From the NCBI GenBank assembly GCA_000934665.2, contig JYFJ02001343.1:62001-82361 (forward strand): a stretch of 20,361 bases of DNA, given 5' to 3'. The notes under the pieces were generated by a model. It saw only the letters and a program-made list of their open reading frames with translations. It did no database searches and had not been told where the DNA came from. Position numbers and translations under genes: made by a program. The stretch comes from Catajapyx aquilonaris (lineage: Eukaryota). Of this stretch, positions 12 to 11,700 are shown piece by piece. Position 1 is the stretch's first letter. The number at the start of each line of letters is the position of its first letter.

Positions 12-442
12 GGGGTGTTCACACCTGCCCTTCCTCCACCCAATCGTGGTTGTGAAGTTGACTTGGGGAATCAGCTTGTAGAAGTTCACTGCCAGGTTTC
101 CACTCCTGATGTCACTCCCCCCTCCAGACTGGTTCTTAGCCGAGCAACATAGCGGCTCTCTACTTGGCCCCATCTGCCCCTCGCTCTGCGGGCAGACCTG
201 TGTAATAATGTAGATAGCATGCCTCCAGCCCTCCATTCTATTAGAGCCAGGCCTATCGTCGAGTCACCCATGCCTTTGGCCATGAGCCGAAGCGAGTAAT
301 TTTTTTCGCCAGGCAGGAGGGCGTGCTTCCAGTCAACTACCAAAAATCACGAAAAGTACATGGCTCATGTGAACAGTCACCAAACAATCCGCGAACCAAT
401 CATGGTTGAAGATTGAGGTTTTGTGGCATGTGTGAACGGCCC
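12..442. mobile_element. Possible non-autonomous DNA transposon (MITE-like) relic bounded by imperfect 18-bp inverted repeats
   Basis: 12-29 GGGGTGTTCACACCTGCC matches the reverse complement of 425-442 (GGGCCGTTCACACATGCC) at 15/18 positions. TA follows the right end, and a related TGTGAAC core recurs at ~368 (TGTGAAT at ~643). No transposase or clean TSD seen. Confidence 0.3.
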
Positions 443-794
443 TATTTATGACGCCACAAGAAACAGTACCAAAGGAATCGGATGAATAGGCAGGAAGTAC
501 CTCTCTTTTGCGTGCATTTTAACTAGGTTAAACAGTAGGAATGTACTTTTTTAAAGAACTTGTAAAAGTTGAGTGCAAGATGGTGGCTTCACTAGTCTGT
601 TTAGGCATGTGATTTACCAGCCATGTCAATTTCATGTCCACCTGTGAATAGCCCTTTCTAGACAACTTACGCAAAATGAGTTTTGAAATATATTATTTAT
701 CATAAAATAGGTTTAGTAATAAACTCTGTTCACAACAGGTTAGACATCATTGAGGTATAAATGCAGTCTAAATTCACATCCTTTTCTTGGATTA

Positions 795-860
795 TCAGTC
801 AGGGACAATGGTGATAGCAAGTTTATGTTCCGGCCAGGAGAATGTCTTAGGTAGTGTGAT
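795..860 (-). CDS. Sufu: Sufu coding exon 7 (last)
   Basis: Acceptor ccttttcAG, ITLPKTFSWPEHKLAITIVPD, then TGA TAA. Confidence 0.94.
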   Translation of the reverse strand: MTLPKTFSWPEHKLAITIVPD

Positions 861-3231
861 CTGAAAAGGAAGGCACATCAGGTCTTAGTATGTTGTGCTG
901 TCATAGCACCCTATTATTAGGTAACAAACCTGTTCTGCAGTGCTAAGCATAACCATGTCATCTAACATTCTGTCAGCTAGATCCTCTCCAATCAGAATTT
1001 GTACCCAGGATCCTTGCACTGCATACGGCCGTCCTGAGTCTACAAAAGCACCAGTGACACTTGGTGCAACCAGAGTCACTGCAATGCTTCCAGTCATGAA
1101 AGCCTTGAATGTGAAATGCCTGCCATGTTTAATCCTACCCCTGAAAACAAGACAGAGCAGAGTTATTTATGAGGTCATTACTGCATGGAAAGGTGAGGTG
1201 CTTGTATGGTCGTTACATCTGACTTGAATGACAAAATGGGACTTCTTCATACAATGTGCCTTGACTTTTACACACAGCTGCCTAATGGTGGGCCCTTAAA
1301 ACCCATTTGAAAGAGATACAAGTGAACAATTACCCAGAGTGTCATGCAAACTCACTCTTACCTGAGTGCAAGTGGTAGCAAAATTCCAGCCTCCAGATTC
1401 AAAGTGAAATGGATTCCATCCAATATTCGAGCTGCCAGCAATTCAGCAGATTCCAGCATCACATTTGAGGCACTGCTCTCAGATTTGGATGATGAGCTGT
1501 AGGGTAAAAAACTTGTTAGTTAATTACATACACTGCAATACATTCAGGTTTACAAGGTGCAAATGGTTGTAATATGCAACCAGTATTTGAAAGACCCTGA
1601 CACAAAAATGACTTAATAATGATTGCCAATTATAATAACATGAGAGAGGTATCATTTTAATTCATGAAACTATGCTGTCATAATCCAACCTATTCCTCAA
1701 CTCCTTCCAGTTCAGTGCTCTTCCCTTGACCGCACCACCATGGACCATCCCTCTCCTCTCCTTGGGTGCGTCTTCCTCTGTGCTGCATTCTTCCTCATAC
1801 TCATCGCTCTCCACCTCCAGTGCTGAAGACCGACCCCATTCAACCCAGGTGCAACGAGCACTCACGCCACTTAGGTTGGATCCTTCCTTCTCCACTGCCC
1901 CATCCACTTCTTCATGGACGGTAGGGTCTAGTTCATACATGCTTTCTCCACGTCGCATGTTTGTTACCAGCCAAGGACCCCCAGCACTGAAAGTCACATC
2001 AGTGAATCACTGGGTGTTATTCAGTTCATGAAATTACACAGGTGTAAATAAACATATTCAATGATTTTCCGTCAAATATGTAAATCTGCTCGTTACAGAA
2101 AAATTATTTGAAATTGAATGACATCACCATAAGTATCCCTCAAGTAATAAATATGTAACTTGCAAAGCATATCATTTATTGCATTGTAACCTATTCACGA
2201 GCATCATTTGTACTTGACAGTCTGCTAGGTGATACCTGAATCTCTTACCCATGAATCTGTTGAAGTATTTTGATCACTGCTGGCCCATTCCAATGTTGTG
2301 CTGCTTGGAGCTCCTCTAACGTGACCCCAACAACCTGGACGAACCTCACCTGGCCAAAGGGCGTGTTCAGAGGTGCTGGCATCTGCGGATCTTCAGCCAT
2401 GAGCATGTGCTGTATCCTCGATTCGCCATTGTCCAAGGGGCAGTGCCAAGAGACATGGTCCCCTGCACACAGCAGATTACCAGACTGGAAGACATACTTG
2501 GACAGCGCCTGTAAAAGAGCAGCAGGCCAAGTGGGGGGTGCGGCATCTTCCGACTCACGTTGCAAGCGGAATGTCAGCTCAAATCCAAATCCACTCGGAG
2601 TCGTAGGATCAGGGTTGTCGTGGACACGGCCATCGCCATGAAGATCTGACAGGCCAAAGCTGAAAGAGGGAATCAGCTGATAACTTGACAGTTTACCCAT
2701 GCTTGTCATGACTCCTCCTTGCTCATTTTCAGCCACAGACTTTCTCTAGGCTGTCTACTTGATGAGTGCAGCAATAATATTTTATGCAGGGACTGTAACA
2801 TCTGCAATATTGTGGCCTAGAGAGGGTTGACCTGCAGATACTGACGTGATGTAGTGCCAGTGGGCCGAGATCCCTTCCTCCTCCTTCCCTGAGTTGGCGT
2901 ACATGCTGATGTAGTCGAGTGGATCTGGTCCTCCCAACCTGAGACGAAGAGGGCAGCGTCACAACAGGTGTGTCAACCCCCAAACAAGACATGACTGAGG
3001 AGGTGGAGGTGCAACAGACCAGAACTTGAGCAGGGCGGCGACCTGCAAGGGGTTCGGCTGGTCCGGATAGACCTCCCTGCAGGCCTTGTAGAGGGACTCC
3101 AGGCCGGGCGGGGGCTGGGGCAGGGCGGGCGCCGCATCCTCCTGCTCCTTCGCCGCCGCCGCTCCCACGGGCGTCGGGGACGGGGCCGTCGGGGAAGAGC
3201 AGGCGGCCTTCTTCTTCTTCTCGTCCGCCAT
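795..3231 (-). CDS. Sufu: Suppressor of fused (Hedgehog pathway Gli/Ci-binding protein), complete, 7 coding exons, 474 aa
   Basis: Exons 3231-3020, 2938-2846, 2659-2249, 1986-1690, 1496-1362, 1140-930 and 860-795 join in phase through GT-AG introns (1425 nt). Hallmark SUFU motifs: PPGLESLYKACREVYPDQPNPLQV, WLGGPDPLDYISMY, HWHYITFGLSDLHGDGRVH, SGFGFELTFRL, GDHVSWH, AAQHWNG, GSNLSGVSA, RGRIKHGRHFTF, LPKTFSWPE. Confidence 0.97.
930..1140 (-). CDS. Sufu: Sufu coding exon 6
   Basis: Acceptor gttttcAG, GRIKHGRHFTFKAF...PYAVQGSWVQILI...STAEQ, donor CAG|GTTTGT. Confidence 0.95.
1362..1496 (-). CDS. Sufu: Sufu coding exon 5
   Basis: Acceptor tttttaccctacAG, SSSKSESSASNVMLESAELLAARILDGIHFTLNLEAGILLPLAL(R), donor GTAAGA. 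Confidence 0.93.
1690..1986 (-). CDS. Sufu: Sufu coding exon 4
   Basis: Acceptor gactttcAG, AGGPWLVTNMRRGES...GSNLSGVSARCTW plus an acidic disordered stretch. AG|GTTGGA at 1689 is the phase-compatible donor, so the 3' boundary is less certain. Confidence 0.85.
2249..2659 (-). CDS. Sufu: Sufu coding exon 3
   Basis: Acceptor ccctctttcAG, FGLSDLHGDGRVH...KILQQIH(G), donor GTAAGA. Confidence 0.96.
2846..2938 (-). CDS. Sufu: Sufu coding exon 2
   Basis: Acceptor tcttcgtctcAG, (W)LGGPDPLDYISMYANSGKEEEGISAHWHYI(T), donor GTCAGT. Confidence 0.95.
3020..3231 (-). CDS. Sufu: Sufu coding exon 1
   Basis: ATG at 3231-3229, MADEKKKK...YPDQPNPLQVAALLKF(W). GC-rich. Donor TG|GTCTGT at 3019. Confidence 0.9.
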
Positions 3232-3560
3232 CGCACAGGGGAGCACACCCAACCCAGATTCCCTCACAATATTAATTAACGCCACATTCCTTTCCCTCTC
3301 TCCGACGGACAGCTCCGGACCAAAAATGCCGGGCGGCAACAGGGATCCAAACTGCCACAATATCCATGGCCCTACTAACAGTGCATTTACCCCACGATTT
3401 ACCCCAACCGGTTGTAATTTTAAGATCATACCCGGATCATACCTTTGTGGTTGTTTCTAATTATTAACTGACAAGGTTTCGTGATGTGATATACATTCAA
3501 TGCTCAGTTTTGGTTTGCGGGTGTGGGTGGCCAGATGTGCGCCATCTTTGTTCTCTTTCG
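3232..3560. promoter_or_regulatory. Short divergent promoter region shared by Sufu (-) and the plus-strand non-coding gene, with a YY1-like CGCCATCTT and a TCT/5'TOP initiator
   Basis: CGCCATCTT at 3540-3548 (part of the palindrome AGATG-TGCGC-CATCT). Pyrimidine run TTCTCTTTC at 3551-3559 fits the TCT initiator YC(+1)TTTY. It lies ~320 nt from the Sufu ATG on the opposite strand. Confidence 0.55.
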
Positions 3561-3739
3561 ATGATTTTGCCGCGCTCCTGCTCCCTCCCCGAGGCTGAAG
3601 GACGGCTAGGAAGAGTGCAATGTTTTCAATGTTTTGGTCCGTGAAGCACCCTGTACGTGGTGAAGACTGGTGGAGTGGTGGGGCACCATGCTTCGTGCTA
3701 TCCAGGGACTCGATCCGTTGTAGTTGGTAAGTATATCAC

Positions 3740-5150
3740 ACAAAGACGCTCTTGATCTCGAGCAATCCAGAACGTTTTCTGGGCATTCTATGGCTGTCGG
3801 ACTCAGACACTGGAGAATTTTTGTATCCAGCCGGTTGCATCTGGCGACATGAACTCCATCAATACGAGGTTCAATGAAAGTTCATGTATCATTTCTTAAT
3901 AATCAAAAACACGACTTATTTGGTAGTACGTACATATCCATTACGTCCATTACTAAACATACGGTACCTGTACTCCTGTAGTGGTATTGCATATGCAGTT
4001 CCATTTGTGTCGCAGATTAACATCACAAGTGAAGTATCCAAGTATCCTATCTCTATAGTGTTTAACGTTCACTTGATGCTTGCTGGACATTTGTGTTGAA
4101 GACTGGACATTGACTTGCATTATTAATGTTGACTGAACATTATTTGTGTGTTATACTTGGGAGAGAGGAAATGAGATGCTTGGAAGCATGCTTGGGAGTG
4201 CCAAAATGAATGGTTCAATCTTGGAAATACACGTAGGGCCTACTAATGCAATGATGTACTTGCTGGGAAGGTAAAAGGTTAACGTAGAAGGACTCCAGTG
4301 CATTTTATAATGCTCATCAACTCGTCAGAGTAAGTCACATCCAGATCCCTTATTGGGTTTGGGCCATGGTCATAGCAGGTTTTGCTGGGCCATCCATACT
4401 TAGGTCAGCTTGTTACATTTTCTATATTACATGTGCAGGATATCTTGTTAGTTGGTTTTGATTAGGAAGGAGGCAAAGCAGCAATGGCTAACTAAAGATA
4501 CAAAGGTGGGATAGATGGAGACAGAAACAAAGAAAAAAAAGAAGAGAGGAAGGCATGGCGTCCCTCTTTGTGTGTCTCCTACCCCAAATGTTATAGTTAG
4601 ATAATTTTCAATAGCAGTGCAGGACTTTCAACTTGACGTGCACAAAGTGAAGGATCCCTTACCATCATATGCAAAGAACTTTCTTGGCAATCACTCAGTC
4701 ATAACATTTCATTCAATTTGGTGCTTCCTACATGATATGAATTGTTGTATGACCAATAAAATGATTTGGGAAATTTAAGTTATTATGATATTTATACTGC
4801 TTCAAGTAATCCTTTGATAAAAGCCGTACACCAGCAATGTGGTGCCAAAAGTGAGCTATTTTCGCCTTTTGAGTGATGTGCTCTGCTGGCCACAAAGTTT
4901 AGCAATCTTTGATGTATGCAGGGTCGTGTCTCTCTTGACAGCACAAAGAAATGTGCATATCATGTAGCCATCACTTGACTAGTGAAAATAGCTATTTTTT
5001 TTGGTTCCACATTGCCAAGAGGGGAATGCACCTTTATGAAATATCATTCCTGTGACCTGCAAGGATATATCAGTATGTAGCAGACCTTCCCAAGTAATAT
5101 GCTTGGATTCTGTGTGCTAATGAAAAGTGCAATTGAGCAGAACCTCTTAC
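3740..5150 (+). ncRNA. Large, highly structured intronic RNA of unknown family
   Basis: More than 25 mostly nested helices read directly from the sequence, e.g. 4037-4046/4175-4184, 4055-4064/4134-4143, 4264-4272/5084-5092, 4834-4842/5007-5015, 4854-4865/4982-4993, 4869-4878/4969-4978. Many G-U pairs work only on the plus strand. The ends are approximate. Confidence 0.65.
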
Positions 5151-5254
5151 TTTTTGACAGGTTTTATTTTGAAAACATGGGCATCATCACGTTGCCATCC
5201 AGAGGTGAAAATTTCACAATTTTGGTCAAAGGTTGGTAAAAACAACTGGGTTGT

Positions 5255-8060
5255 AGGTATATCGTAAGTTGCTTTATTGAAGCATCTATAAACTTTCCTG
5301 TGAACTAAGGCAATTTGTTCTCCCACTCTCTATCTGAAATTTGTGCCATTCCACCATAATTCACTCCACCGCATCCAAGATCATTAGGCAACATTCCTAC
5401 ATGACTTCCGACAATAGAGATATTATCCATCAGTGTAAAACAGGTGCAGTATGAAAAGAGAAGATATGGTGTCAAAACCAGAAATATTCTGTAAAATATA
5501 ACTTCATAGTACACAAAGCCATGGAATATTGAAACATTTCACCAGCACTTGATGGTGCTTTTTTTCCCGCCTTATTCACATGAAAAATTGGGACTTTTAA
5601 AATTACAGGGGAGGTGAGGATAAGTGAAAAACAAATGGTAACATATGTATAACAGAGTAAAATGGCCTTGTCATAAGATTGATTATTGTGGGAATATTAG
5701 TAAGATTATTATAATATTCTTTTCTTCTACATGCCTAAGCAAAAGCTGAAAACATGTGTCCACGTGTAACTTGTACTTCTCTCTATGACTGCTTTTGTTG
5801 CCACTAAAAAGGTGGTGGTGAGTGTTGGTTGTCAGGGGGGGGCAGGGATTAGGAAGGTGGATGTTGGAGGAAGGACATGGTGTGTAGAACCCAATTCACC
5901 TAGGCTTTTGATCAAAACAGGAGTGGGAAGAGCAAGCTCCTCATTTTATGTTTCTGTCTCTCTGCGTTTATATATATATACATGTGTGTAGCAATGGCTG
6001 ACCTACTCACCCCTCTATAAAGCAGTGCGCACACCTGATGAAGGGATTGCCAAGTTGCCCCATCCTAAATCTCACCACAGTATTCATTTTTCCCAGCATA
6101 CGTGGAACTTGGCCCAGGCCAACCAGGGACCAGCCCTGGGTCACCAAGCATGAGCACTGGAAATCCCACGTTGTTGTTTTTACATTTAGAGTGAGCAGGG
6201 AGGGCAACTTCCGCAGAAGTGGTTTCACACTGAACTCTCTGCCCACATGTGTAAAAATTAAGGTCATCTTACAATTTACACAGGACAAGGCTACATGTCT
6301 AGAACATCTGAGAACTACTTGTGGGTTAAGAGTACAAGTTTGGAAATGGCAATCCCTTCACAAAGTGGTACAAAACAATAGACATGGTGGGAAGTGTGTG
6401 GTCATGCTTTTATTTGCTTGTTGGCAGCCAGTATATGATGGAGCAGAAATGGATGGAGGCGTCTGCAAAGTTCTGTGAATAGTGAGTGTCACAGTAGTTG
6501 TTCTTGTTGAGACCGGAAAAATGGTCATTGCACCAATCTCACTACACACGAAGGCATATCACATGTGGATTGAATTTGACCATATGCAAGCGTATCTAGA
6601 AATAGCAGCTGCGCTGGGAAGCAAGGACACTCGAGATGAAGTATCTTGTAGGTGGATTTTATATAGCAAAACTTCCCTCAAGAACCTACAAACTCCTCCA
6701 TTCACAGCCCAACTCACTATCACCTACCCCTAAATCACTGCTGTCTAGTTATATTGACTGCACCTTCTTAGAAAGTGTGTGTGCAGGCTGAGGTGAGGGA
6801 AGGGGCGGTCAAGGTTCACTTATGACACAAGAGTAGTAGTGTATGTGCACAAGGCATATTGTCTTTCTAAACCACAAATAGTCAAAGTTTTTTTCTCTTC
6901 TGTACCAGTAGTTAAACATTTGATTTTCTTTCCTACTCTGGGGACAAGGCCTGTGTACAACAAATACTCCCAAGACATGCTCTGCACGATGTGTCTGTGC
7001 AAAATGCGAGAAACAACAAAAGAGAGGACAGTGCAATTTCTACTCATTACAAGTTTGCCTCGCTAAGAGATAAACACTAAGTAGAAACTTCTATGAAACC
7101 CAAGATGGCTTTCCATCAGAGCGCTCTGATCAGAATACCAAGCCTGGACAGGGTAGAATAATCATGGCATAATAAAGAAATTATACTGATATCACTATGC
7201 AACTAGTACAATACAGGCCTAAGCAACTATAATTGGCAACATGGGGCAACGTGCAAACTGATCCCTTCTGGCGTGTGTTTTGTCCACTGAAAATGTTGTA
7301 TTTGTTGATACAGTGGTTATATCAAAATTGATTTTTTTTGCTCACTTTTTGAAAATTTTTGGCAACGTTGTCTTCAGCCCCCTTAGTACAATTTTCCCAT
7401 TTTGGCAGCTTCAGTTTGAATATACAGTTTCATCTGGACCAAAAATGTAATTGGATGTTTTGTAGCGTTGATCAGGATGAAGGGGGAAGGTTGGGGAGAA
7501 AGTGGGGGAGGGAAGGGAGAGGACAGGTTGATTGACATGACTGGTTGGTGGTGTTTGTGTGTGACAGGGTGGGAGGGGGGGGGGGCATGGATTACGGAAT
7601 TTTTCAGAGAAGGGTTGTGGGATAGGAAGCCAGCACTACCACTCAGAATTAAAGTGACTATCAGTCTTGTCAAGAGCTAGCTCTTCACTGCTTCTTTTCT
7701 GACGCTCCAAAGGTTGACTGACTGATGTTCCTCGGCGGCAATGACCTACAGGCGATGCCAACACTTTTTTTTTTTCCTTTATAACTATTATTCTGTCGCT
7801 ACTCAAAACACTACGGGCCCTGTGGGTAACTTGGAATATTCGACTAATCAGTCCATCGGGTCGGTCCACATGTTGAGTGTTTTAGCTGCTTCATCCACTC
7901 AATCTCCAACTACTTCCATCCTGGGACCTGCATCCTCACAATGCTTAGAGAAGCTCTGCTGTCCGCACGTGCTGCTGGTTGCATACTTGAGTTATACCGT
8001 GACTTTTTTGTAATATATATATCTTCACCACATTACAGTCCAAAGTTGTGTGCATAATAC
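5255..8060 (-). other. Non-coding last exon (long 3'UTR, ~2.8 kb) of the NDRG gene
   Basis: Strong acceptor ttgacttaatttcctctctttcacAG ending at 8061, paired with donor AG|GTTGGT at 8516 just after the stop. No credible ORF. Ends at the AATAAA at 5273-5278. Confidence 0.6.
5273..5278 (-). terminator. Distal polyadenylation signal of the NDRG gene
   Basis: AATAAA on the minus strand, a CA ~20 nt downstream, then GU/U-rich GTTGTTTTT (~5247-5239). Another minus-strand AATAAA lies at 6409-6414. Confidence 0.55.
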
Positions 8061-8749: not shown

Positions 8750-11700
8750 CTAACAAAAGAAAAATATAATATTAACTTTTAAAGCTCACCCTCATGAAAT
8801 GAAATTGTATGCCTTCGCTGCATAGGCTTACAGGATGTTCAAATTCGAAATGTGTTGTTATAAAGCTGCAATGAGCTTGACAGAACTAACTGTTTGATGT
8901 TTGAGATAGTTTTCTGGGACTTTACCTTATTACATATCAACTCCAATATATGCGAGTTTATTTTTCTTACGCAACCAGTGCACTTAATACTGTACTTGCA
9001 GGCTGCATGCAGTGCCCCTCTGGATTTTTCTTTTTTTGTGTGTGTACCATATTGAGATAGTTTGTTTATTCTAAGAGATCTTGAAGATGCCTCATTACAT
9101 AACAGGTTAGGAGAAAGTCAGCTAGCTCTCGACAAGAACACTCTCGCAAGGTTTTGTTTAAGGTAGAAACTTTTCTTATGCTCTTTTTCCCCCCTTCTTC
9201 ACTAAGAGATATTATGATGCATTAGGACTTTCGTACCGCTTCGGTCATAATGTCACCGATGTCGTCGATCTTGAGCAGTGTGCAACGAGTCTTATCCATG
9301 ACAGCATGCAAGCTCAGCACTGTCTGAACATGTGCTCCCAAGGTACCGGTCACCAGCAAGGAGTCCACTTTGAGGTTGGGCAGTTGGGTCGTCACATCTT
9401 TACGGCTGAAAGCAAACAGGTCCTAACCAATTATGACTGGCCTTAAGAACAGAACATGCTTTGCTATTTTATGATCTTCATGATCCTGTTTGGGAAGAAG
9501 AGCAGCAGGACCGTTTCAGAACTCACTTGAGGAAAGCCTCGACGTATTTCTTGAGGTTCTTAGGATTGATGGAAGAGCGAAGGCGGGCTTGGAAATCCTG
9601 GATTGTTCTCTCTCGTTCCTTGGCCGTGGCGTTCTCGAGTTGCTGAAAAATACCAGGAACCGAGATTAGGCACATACCTTCCTAGCTGTCACCTCACATT
9701 CCGTACAGTGGACGTGTAGATGATGCTTTGTGTGATTTGCATTTTTGTACACGGGTGAACAATAACAAGAGTGGTAAATAATAATAATAACGTGAGCGCG
9801 GTTGTATACTGCTCGTCAAATGTGTTTCTTTCGGTTTGCTAGTTGTGCTGAGATAAAACAATTTCCCATATTAACATGCACGCAAATTCTGGAAGCAACT
9901 ATAGTACACGTGGTTCAGATCCATGCTAAGCCAGTGCTGACGTACACACACGGGACATTGACACGATACATACGTGAGACTGAGAGCCAAGTTCGTGGTC
10001 CCAATTCGGCAGGTGTCACACGGTCAGAAATAAACACGGATGTGGACACATCCCACATGTATTCCCCACGTACAAATGCGTTTTTAAATTATTTACTGCC
10101 GACTGCTTTTGAGTGACACAACACACAAGAAGTCTTAGCCAATCACGTCGGTCATTAAAATTCTAATAACAATATTCAGGCACACTTACCATCATATTGG
10201 CTGATGCGTGATTGTACTGGCAGGATTTTGTTTCTATACGTACTTGCGATGAATATCTCCGACATATTTTTGCACGCACTGTGGAGGCGGGTGTTTGCAA
10301 AATTGAAGGCCTTAAGTATGTTGAAAATTAATTCGTGAGATGGCATACTAGAATCTTAGGAAGAGATTTCATTTCATTTATTAGCCGTAAACACATTAAT
10401 GGCACCAGCAGGTTAAGGTCTCCAATTGCGCAACAATTAATTTAAACACGCTCTTTTAAATCGAATAAATGCGCATTTCACCCATCTCCACAACCCACAA
10501 AAAAAACATCTACACATTGATCTGTTTGCGTGTTGCAAAAAAGAGCAACAAAAAATGTGCGCTTTGCATTGCAAATCAAACAATGTTTACGGGAGCGGTT
10601 GAAACCTCGATTTGAAAGCGAATAGCTCAAACTTGACGCACTTGTCAAATGCAATTCGAATCCAATAGTGAGACATGATGTAAGCAAGGATTACGAGCCA
10701 ATCCCGCATTCAAGAGAGGTCCCCACCGCAGGCTAATCGAGGCAATCAATTCCGGAGGGCTATACAGTAAGACAAGTCGGTTTTATACAATGGAAAAGAT
10801 TATTCGTCCGCCTTTCAAAAGCTGGAAGCTTCCTCCAGCGAGACCCGATTAGTCGATGATGAACTCATTTGATACAGCTGCATAACTTTGATGCAAAGAA
10901 CTTAGGGCTTATGCATTCAATTTCCAGGCAAAGTTCCTAGAAACGGACTCGGTAAGTGCCGCTAGTTTTCTAGGCCAAAAATTCTTAATAAACATGGGTC
11001 CTAATTAGGCACGGGTATCTGTACGATATCTTGCTCAAGAATTAGGGAACCGCTCTAGAATTGGGGCTTAATTGCCCTTCACGCGGAAACCCGCTCTGTA
11101 AATACGGATTTTAATATTCGCTTCCCCTCCTCTTTTCCGGACGCCCCCAATCCAATCTGGATGGTAACGTCTTCCGAGGCAGGCCATTAACCCTGGCTTT
11201 TACGACACACCCTTGTCATCAACCTAAAGCAAACCTATCCGTCAGATTCGATCACGTCTAGAATTGATTTACTTGGGTGTACTTGTGTGTGTGTGGTACG
11301 GTATGTGAGCGTGTTCCCTTATGACACGGAGTTAGTCACTATTTCTAGCTATTTGGCTACGACTGTCGTCGTTAATAACAACTACTGTCCAAGTCGGTAG
11401 ATGTGATCGGAGCGTCTGTTTTGCATTGGGGGAGGGGGGGGGGGAACCAAGTTTTTAAAAATATTGTGTTGTTCGTACATGTTGCACGTTTCCGCATTCC
11501 AAGCAAGTTATGAGGGCCTTGCACCATTTTGGAATGCGAAACAATACCTTTATCCAGATCAGGGTGAAGGCAAACTGGGTGGGATCAGTGACCGAAACAA
11601 AAGGCTATTGACGAATGCGCTGGTTGACGTCAACGCGCTCACATCTACGTCGTGCACAAGCACATATAAGGCAGCGAAATGATAAAATAATAAGGGGGGA

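Follow-up and report, generated by a model that had tools for sequence, protein, structure and literature searches.

A candidate spliced non-coding gene divergent from Sufu in Catajapyx aquilonaris, with a single-copy hairpin in its predicted intron

The 20,361-nt stretch of Catajapyx aquilonaris contig JYFJ02001343.1 analysed here (the window) contains two minus-strand genes, Sufu and NDRG. A reading of the sequence alone had placed between them an unannotated, apparently non-coding plus-strand gene, started at a TCT initiator of the 5' terminal oligopyrimidine (5'TOP) type, whose product would be its intron. The location was confirmed: both neighbours are real, spliced genes of the minus strand, Sufu by a Pfam SUFU match (E 5e-34) and six CT..AC joints in the contig set X1, and NDRG by a Pfam Ndr match and X1 contigs. 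The gap between them measures about 2.1 kb, and the candidate gene lying in it would thus be arranged head to head with Sufu and tail to tail with NDRG. X1 is a single shallow set (depth about 5-7 over Sufu) for which the kind of run is unrecorded. Its nine joints over the window are all CT..AC minus-strand introns of Sufu and NDRG; there is no cover at 3301-4290 or 4621-5280, and the cover at 4291-4620 derives from other copies of a dispersed repeat. Since so shallow a set shows presence and not absence, the gaps were counted neither for nor against the gene. The features considered are collected in Table 1; all genome-wide searches refer to the 285.6-Mb assembly.

Table 1. Features of the candidate gene and its neighbours, in window coordinates
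Feature	Positions	Strand	Basis or remark
CpG island common to the Sufu start and candidate exon 1, with a skew flip near 3480	3000..3900		CpG observed/expected ratio, GC skew
Motif CGCCATCTT, presumably YY1-type	3540..3548	+	Unique within the window; not beyond chance
Pyrimidine initiator, predicted start C3553 (or C3555)	3551..3560	+	Matches the human consensus, mismatches the fly consensus
Predicted exon 1, 174 nt from C3553	3553..3726	+	Inferred from initiator and donor
61-codon open reading frame, only if 3726^5161 is spliced	3620..5239	+	Frame stays open over the predicted junction
Predicted intron, 1434 nt, GT-AG, branch-point-like CTAAT at 5117	3727..5160	+	Sequence prediction
Dispersed repeat copy in the intron	4442..4592		At least 39 other matches, 74-86% identity (40 scored of 124 candidates)
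Single-copy hairpin, 182 nt	4834..5015	+	Predicted fold and genome searches
Predicted exon 2, about 150 nt, TATAAA at 5287; may end at donor 5232 or 5264	5161..5310	+	Acceptor rank; 3' end inferred
Sufu gene, neighbour head to head	427..3295	-	Pfam SUFU and X1 contig cover; ATG at 3231
NDRG 3' untranslated region (UTR), neighbour tail to tail	5390..8058	-	Single contig from 8058 down to 5390, joined to NDRG exons

Candidate two-way promoter signals were found at the Sufu start. The ratio of observed to expected CpG is 0.73-0.84 across 3000-3900 versus 0.14-0.37 in most flanking bins, low values being the usual trace of germ-line methylation (PMC5915941). The island reaches 600 nt past the Sufu contig end and spans predicted exon 1. 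The GC skew changes from -0.29 (3232-3480) to +0.18 (3481-3726), that is, from C-rich to G-rich, which is in the top 1.3% of 795 positions for a boundary picked post hoc. Three of the six plus-strand GTAAGT sites lie within 3553-5310, the first of them 174 nt after the predicted start (p about 0.01, for a region likewise picked post hoc). Drosophila has many head-to-head gene pairs, and its stable divergent transcripts are marked by 5' splice sites downstream of their starts (PMC6009668). Taken together, the skew flip and the plus-strand GTAAGT cluster are a modest signal. With the island, they support a two-way promoter better than the single motifs do and raise the odds of a plus-strand transcript, short of demonstrating one.

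The individual motifs named by the sequence-only reading were all found in their places: CGCCATCTT at 3540-3548, TTCTCTTTC at 3551-3559, the donor G/GTAAGT at 3726/3727, an acceptor AG ending at 5160 and TATAAA at 5287. CGCCATCTT is presumably of the YY1 type. Taken singly, the motifs are mostly not beyond chance. CGCCATNTT occurs once in the window, and 46 of 100 shuffles contain it at least once. A 10-letter mammalian consensus has 54 plus-strand matches if one mismatch is allowed, one of them within 3300-4000. For TCT initiators the Drosophila consensus reads YYC+1TTTYY and the human one YC+1TYTYY (PMC5580651); the tract at 3551-3560 fits the human form YCTYTYY, and so do 38 plus-strand places in the window. 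In mammals, a TATA box is present in eight of nine non-ribosomal TOP promoters, most YY1 sites lie downstream of the start, and YY1 is rare in non-ribosomal TOP promoters (PMC554972). The candidate departs from this mammalian pattern, with its YY1-type motif upstream of the start and no TATA box.

Splice sites were scored with matrices built from 14 introns of the genome, nine taken from RNA contigs and five read from RpL3. The predicted donor has 7.6 bits (rank 18 of 1236 plus-strand GT) and the predicted acceptor 6.9 bits (rank 24 of 1253 plus-strand AG), and both scores fall inside the leave-one-out range of the 14 true sites. Alternative donors were observed at 4330, 5232 (rank 3 of 1236) and 5264, and an alternative acceptor at 4941, inside the intronic hairpin described below. 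With a third-ranked donor at 5232 and an acceptor within the hairpin, the two-exon model is one of several.

The exons can plausibly be treated as non-coding. No homologue of the exon-1 frame was found among proteins of 23-76 residues, neither exon frame has a Pfam match, and all atlas matches are below 0.9; these searches covered the exons frame by frame, exon 2 in Pfam only. The earlier statement that there is no recognisable protein thus stands as regards homologues and Pfam matches. It passed over the fact that the predicted 3726^5161 joining creates a 61-codon open reading frame (ORF) from the ATG at 3620, a length that 7.5% of 2000 shuffled versions of the 324-nt RNA also reach. Upstream of it, a 27-codon ORF begins at an ATG at 3561.

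The predicted intron was analysed for known classes of structured RNA. Rfam gave nothing at the gathering score in the window, and focused scans gave only matches with E 0.19-9.3. As to box C/D small nucleolar RNAs (snoRNAs), the intron contains no perfect C box, four TGATG cores and one CTGA (4133). Two degenerate C/D readings, 4251-4328 and 4074-4136, have no terminal stem and fold no better than shuffles (z +0.9 and -1.0), and a minus-strand C box (5190) combined with CTGA (5073) was rejected for the same lack of a folding signal. A scan for the H box-hairpin-ACA arrangement, in which only the 3' hairpin was scored, produced no typical layout among the 15 best pairs; there is no ANANNA after 5015, the U17 motifs pairing with rRNA are absent, and a genome search with RF00045 points to other loci. 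RNase P RNA (six copies), MRP RNA and SNORA73-like RNAs are located elsewhere in the genome. For RNase P, a profile of the six own copies matches nothing in the region at E <= 10, and there is no Rfam match. No 7- or 8-nt TTAGG or TTAGGG template of a telomerase RNA was found on either strand of 3540-5400; a TCAGG template has one 7-mer per strand there, the organism's own telomeric repeat not being established. Guide complements to U5, RNase P and MRP RNAs and to fragments of 18S (481 nt) and 28S (114 nt) rRNA are at best 8-12 nt long, which is chance level. The 11-nt matches, to RNase P RNA (5081-5091), to the start of the 18S fragment (4961-4971) and, as an identity, to U5 loop 1 (4860-4870), were reached in 6-19% of 500 shuffles with nine targets and were rejected. 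A 16-nt pairing of 3729-3744 with 4143-4158 closes a 434-nt region (z -2.6) without a C box. The dispersed repeat copy within the intron has a hairpin of its own (z -6.0 on the minus strand).

The description of the locus as a carrier transcript or host gene holds in part. A divergent plus-strand non-coding transcript is plausible, because there are a CpG island, a skew flip, usable splice sites and no homologous protein. A host gene needs a cargo, however, and the searches of the intron yielded neither a snoRNA nor any other known RNA.

The one candidate for a cargo is the single-copy hairpin. Its stem consists of 39 pairs (34 Watson-Crick and five G-U), interrupted and arranged in four helices, between 4834-4878 and 4969-5015; the top is a four-way junction made of three small hairpins and a 12-nt unpaired linker. 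The predicted fold has -75.8 kcal/mol (z -5.4, none of 200 shuffles being as good), with stem pair probabilities of 0.83-1.0. This is the strongest local fold of the 20-kb window on both strands (z -8.1 on the plus and -7.3 on the minus strand), and the plus strand folds 9 kcal/mol better than the minus strand. Genome-wide there is one candidate, and the arm pattern occurs at one locus, whereas 622 candidates and 81 matches were obtained for a control, a similar imperfect hairpin some 10 kb distant. A metagenome scan with the arm pattern gave at least 121 loci; among the matches listed, none fits the hairpin interior beyond chance. Compared with a canonical microRNA precursor, whose stem of about 35 bp ends in a simple loop, the element has a 39-pair stem but a 90-nt branched top, and its only Rfam match is at E 9.3. 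The 3' arm presumably resembles vertebrate Y RNA ends and the miR-279 seed, a likeness for which Rfam gave no support. One candidate and one arm-pattern locus do not make a family of miniature inverted-repeat transposable elements (MITEs), a search that a very old or low-copy element could escape; the flanks have only a 2-nt match (CA) as a possible target duplication. The hairpin is in fairness a candidate functional RNA element and equally a candidate decayed palindrome. It keeps alive, without proving it, the claim of an intronic product.

TCT starts are typical of ribosomal-protein and translation genes (PMC5580651) and are also found in GAS5 and U17HG (PMC554972), in agreement with what the sequence-only reading had said of such starts; zebrafish snoRNA hosts use dual starts (PMC6954239). 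From this it had been concluded that the transcript is co-regulated with ribosome biogenesis. The motif pair GCCATCTT-N(0-8)-CTCTTTC has 25 matches in the genome, many of them repeat copies, versus three for a reversed control. Downstream of the 24 other loci, 64 of 137 frames (17 loci) were scanned, with one Pfam match (ankyrin) and no ribosomal protein, and an Rfam scan of 10 of the 24 loci gave one tRNA and no snoRNA. The promoter region of RpL3 does not contain the pair. The pair was rejected as a ribosomal-gene signature, as the other copies tested are followed by neither a ribosomal protein nor a snoRNA. GGACGGCTAGG is shared by a second locus, within a long frame of the minus strand that looks like a transposase fragment; this locus has no further similarity and was ascribed to chance. 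As the motif is upstream, no TATA box accompanies it and its tested copies lead to no ribosomal protein or snoRNA, the initiator is all that is left behind the proposed co-regulation, and the link to ribosome biogenesis is unsupported.

In its predicted working the candidate resembles a host gene of the TOP type or else a stable divergent long non-coding RNA (lncRNA). Similarly to the non-coding 5'TOP snoRNA hosts GAS5 and U17HG (PMC554972), it would have a pyrimidine initiator, short exons without a conserved ORF and a product expected from the intron; unlike them, it is itself a prediction, has one long intron with a repeat insertion and no TATA box, and no box C/D or H/ACA RNA was found in it. 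ZFAS1, head to head with ZNFX1 (PMC13238724), is likewise non-coding and spliced and has a two-way promoter in common with its protein-coding neighbour, an arrangement that is predicted here. However, ZFAS1 carries three canonical C/D snoRNAs (SNORD12, SNORD12B and SNORD12C), whereas the sole candidate here is a box-less hairpin. As in stable divergent transcripts or promoter upstream transcripts of Drosophila (PMC6009668), a second core promoter would lie less than 500 bp from the gene start, followed by 5' splice sites; those transcripts were mapped by cap analysis of gene expression, while the candidate is predicted from sequence only. A precedent for a large structured non-snoRNA from an intron of an RNA polymerase II (Pol II) transcript in arthropods is RNase P RNA, which is cut from an intron in insects and crustaceans (PMC4287351). 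Unlike it, the hairpin has no homology to the six RNase P copies of this genome, and MRP lies elsewhere. With the MITE-like palindromic repeats of the genome the hairpin shares a long imperfect terminal stem and a branched top; it differs from them in that no second copy was found genome-wide and only the CA match flanks it. The Uhg genes of Drosophila are another set of non-coding 5'TOP snoRNA hosts. Because the defining snoRNA was sought and not found, the candidate cannot be filed with such hosts. A literature search gave no description of this locus or of an RNA of this kind, subscription papers and supplements being outside the scope of the search.

We tentatively favour a real divergent spliced non-coding gene beside Sufu, a reading that is just short of probable. 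From the sequence we infer the following course for its transcription, start site, splicing, processing and function. The Sufu CpG island would be a two-way promoter with a second core promoter. A plus-strand Pol II transcript would start at C3553 in the pyrimidine tract, at a distance of 260 nt from the outermost end of the Sufu contigs, and early U1 sites would protect it from the premature termination to which upstream antisense RNAs succumb. Splicing would be at 3726^5161 or in a variant form, and the transcript would end near 5310, tail to tail with NDRG, whose 3' end it would adjoin or overlap. The exons would be non-coding, disposable and probably short-lived. The product, if any, would be the 182-nt intronic hairpin, freed from the lariat and shortened by trimming as far as the 39-pair stem; failing that, the gene would be a cargo-less divergent lncRNA. 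That the hairpin is a stable product, which would make the gene a host for a new structured RNA, is unlikely. We give as little credit to the proposal in full, namely a TCT-initiated host divergent from Sufu that delivers a new class of intron-encoded RNA of about 180 nt, without C/D or H/ACA boxes, lariat-matured and co-regulated with the translation machinery.

Several observations weigh against such a gene. Pyrimidine tracts of this kind are common in the window, the 22 places in it that match the fly consensus YYCTTTYY do not include the tract at 3551-3560, and no TATA box was found at -35 to -20 of the predicted start. Seventeen donors and 23 acceptors on the plus strand score higher than the predicted sites, with no gene known there. 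The skew boundary and the GTAAGT region were both chosen after the fact. The strand asymmetry of the intron is uninformative because the controls disagree, and its CpG depletion is common to the whole neighbourhood and does not discriminate. In 148,896 plus-strand bases of other loci, a non-random and repeat-rich sample, 16 folds have z <= -8 and 38 have z <= -6. The asymmetry of G-U versus A-C in the hairpin favours the plus strand by 5 to 1, with p 0.11. All comparison is within one genome, the hairpin being folded from a single sequence.

Alternatively, there may be no stable plus-strand gene at all. The interval would then consist of the NDRG 3' flank and the upstream half of Sufu's promoter, the motifs would be due to chance or belong to Sufu, and the hairpin would stem from an old inverted duplication at this place or from a palindromic element that has decayed. 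Indeed, every motif is singly at chance level, the YY1-type motif reads in sense for Sufu, and strong hairpins are abundant in the genome, several of them with the same stem-plus-branches shape. Two canonical minus-strand AATAAA hexamers, at 5278 and 5168, may be the poly(A) signals of NDRG and suit it better than TATAAA suits the candidate. On the other hand, the skew flip and the cluster of U1 sites are directed outward on the plus strand, and the hairpin, unlike the control, has no detectable family; the absence of a gene is possible but clearly less than probable. The same two hexamers lie between the NDRG contig end and the hairpin, and this, together with the better fold of the plus strand, makes it exceedingly improbable that the hairpin acts on the minus strand in an extended NDRG 3' end or read-through RNA, for instance as a double-stranded editing or termination element, although it folds on that strand too and the NDRG RNA extends at least to 5390. 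An ordinary snoRNA host of the GAS5, ZFAS1 or Uhg type would have to use degenerate boxes, for example at 4251-4328 (C-like ATGATGT, D-like CAGA) or 4074-4136. The TCT-like start and the head-to-head layout, as in ZFAS1 (PMC13238724), would agree with this, and 20 nt past the 4251 motif there is an 8-nt stretch complementary to U5 loop 1. However, with no Rfam match, no perfect C box and a single CTGA in the intron, with neither C/D candidate having a terminal stem or a folding signal, and with no H box past the big hairpin or typical layout among the best H...ACA pairs, it is very unlikely. The frame open across the predicted junction would allow the spliced RNA to encode a 61-residue orphan peptide from the ATG at 3620, but its length is reached by 7.5% of shuffles, the ATG at 3561 precedes it, and the exon-1 frame has neither a homologue nor a Pfam match, so that this possibility is hardly credible.

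Some further observations concern the neighbouring gene and the other RNAs and repeats of the genome. The NDRG 3' UTR is at least 2.7 kb long, and the loose ends of two contigs, at 9642 and 9644, hint at alternative splicing in a part of NDRG further up. The six copies of RNase P RNA (our loci L010-L015) are 284-428 nt long and of at least three diverged types, contig C323 carrying two of them in tandem. Five of the six are preceded, at 68-102 nt, by a perfect C box (RTGATGA), and CTGA lies 62-85 nt downstream of five of the six, the contig of the sixth ending after 47 nt. Box C/D elements may flank the RNase P RNA on both sides, as in a sno-capped RNA; the copies are related (L014 and L015 are nearly identical) and hence not independent. 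Such framing is not mentioned in the available part of PMC4287351. Two paralogous SNORA73-like H/ACA candidates were found in neighbouring introns of RpL3 (L050:689-885 and L050:1175-1369, contig C3), with 22-27 bits, below the cut-off, and without the U17 motifs pairing with rRNA. The same locus has a U83/SNORD103-like C/D RNA at L050:2623-2706 and further C/D-like stretches. A SNORD35-like C/D candidate on the minus strand of L046 (214-291; 23 bits, E 0.15) has both C and D boxes. Palindromes that are almost perfect, 100-220 nt long and closed by tiny loops occur frequently in the assembly (L012:2144-2337, L022:2284-2477, L038:2007-2109, L050:7965-8185); they could be elements or amplification artefacts. 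A MITE-like family of about 130-200 nt, represented by L051:5244-5436, has 622 genome candidates. The sole 18S fragment found, L017:1440-1890, is GC-rich and diverged, the ribosomal DNA unit being otherwise unassembled.

The candidate gene beside Sufu gives exact predictions: a start at C3553, a junction 3726^5161 and RNA ends near 4834 and 5015. If it is only a divergent spliced lncRNA, it would be an ordinary gain for annotation. If the hairpin is its stable product, the locus would be a TOP-type host with a non-snoRNA cargo, and the hairpin would be the second arthropod structured RNA, after RNase P RNA, to be matured from a Pol II intron.

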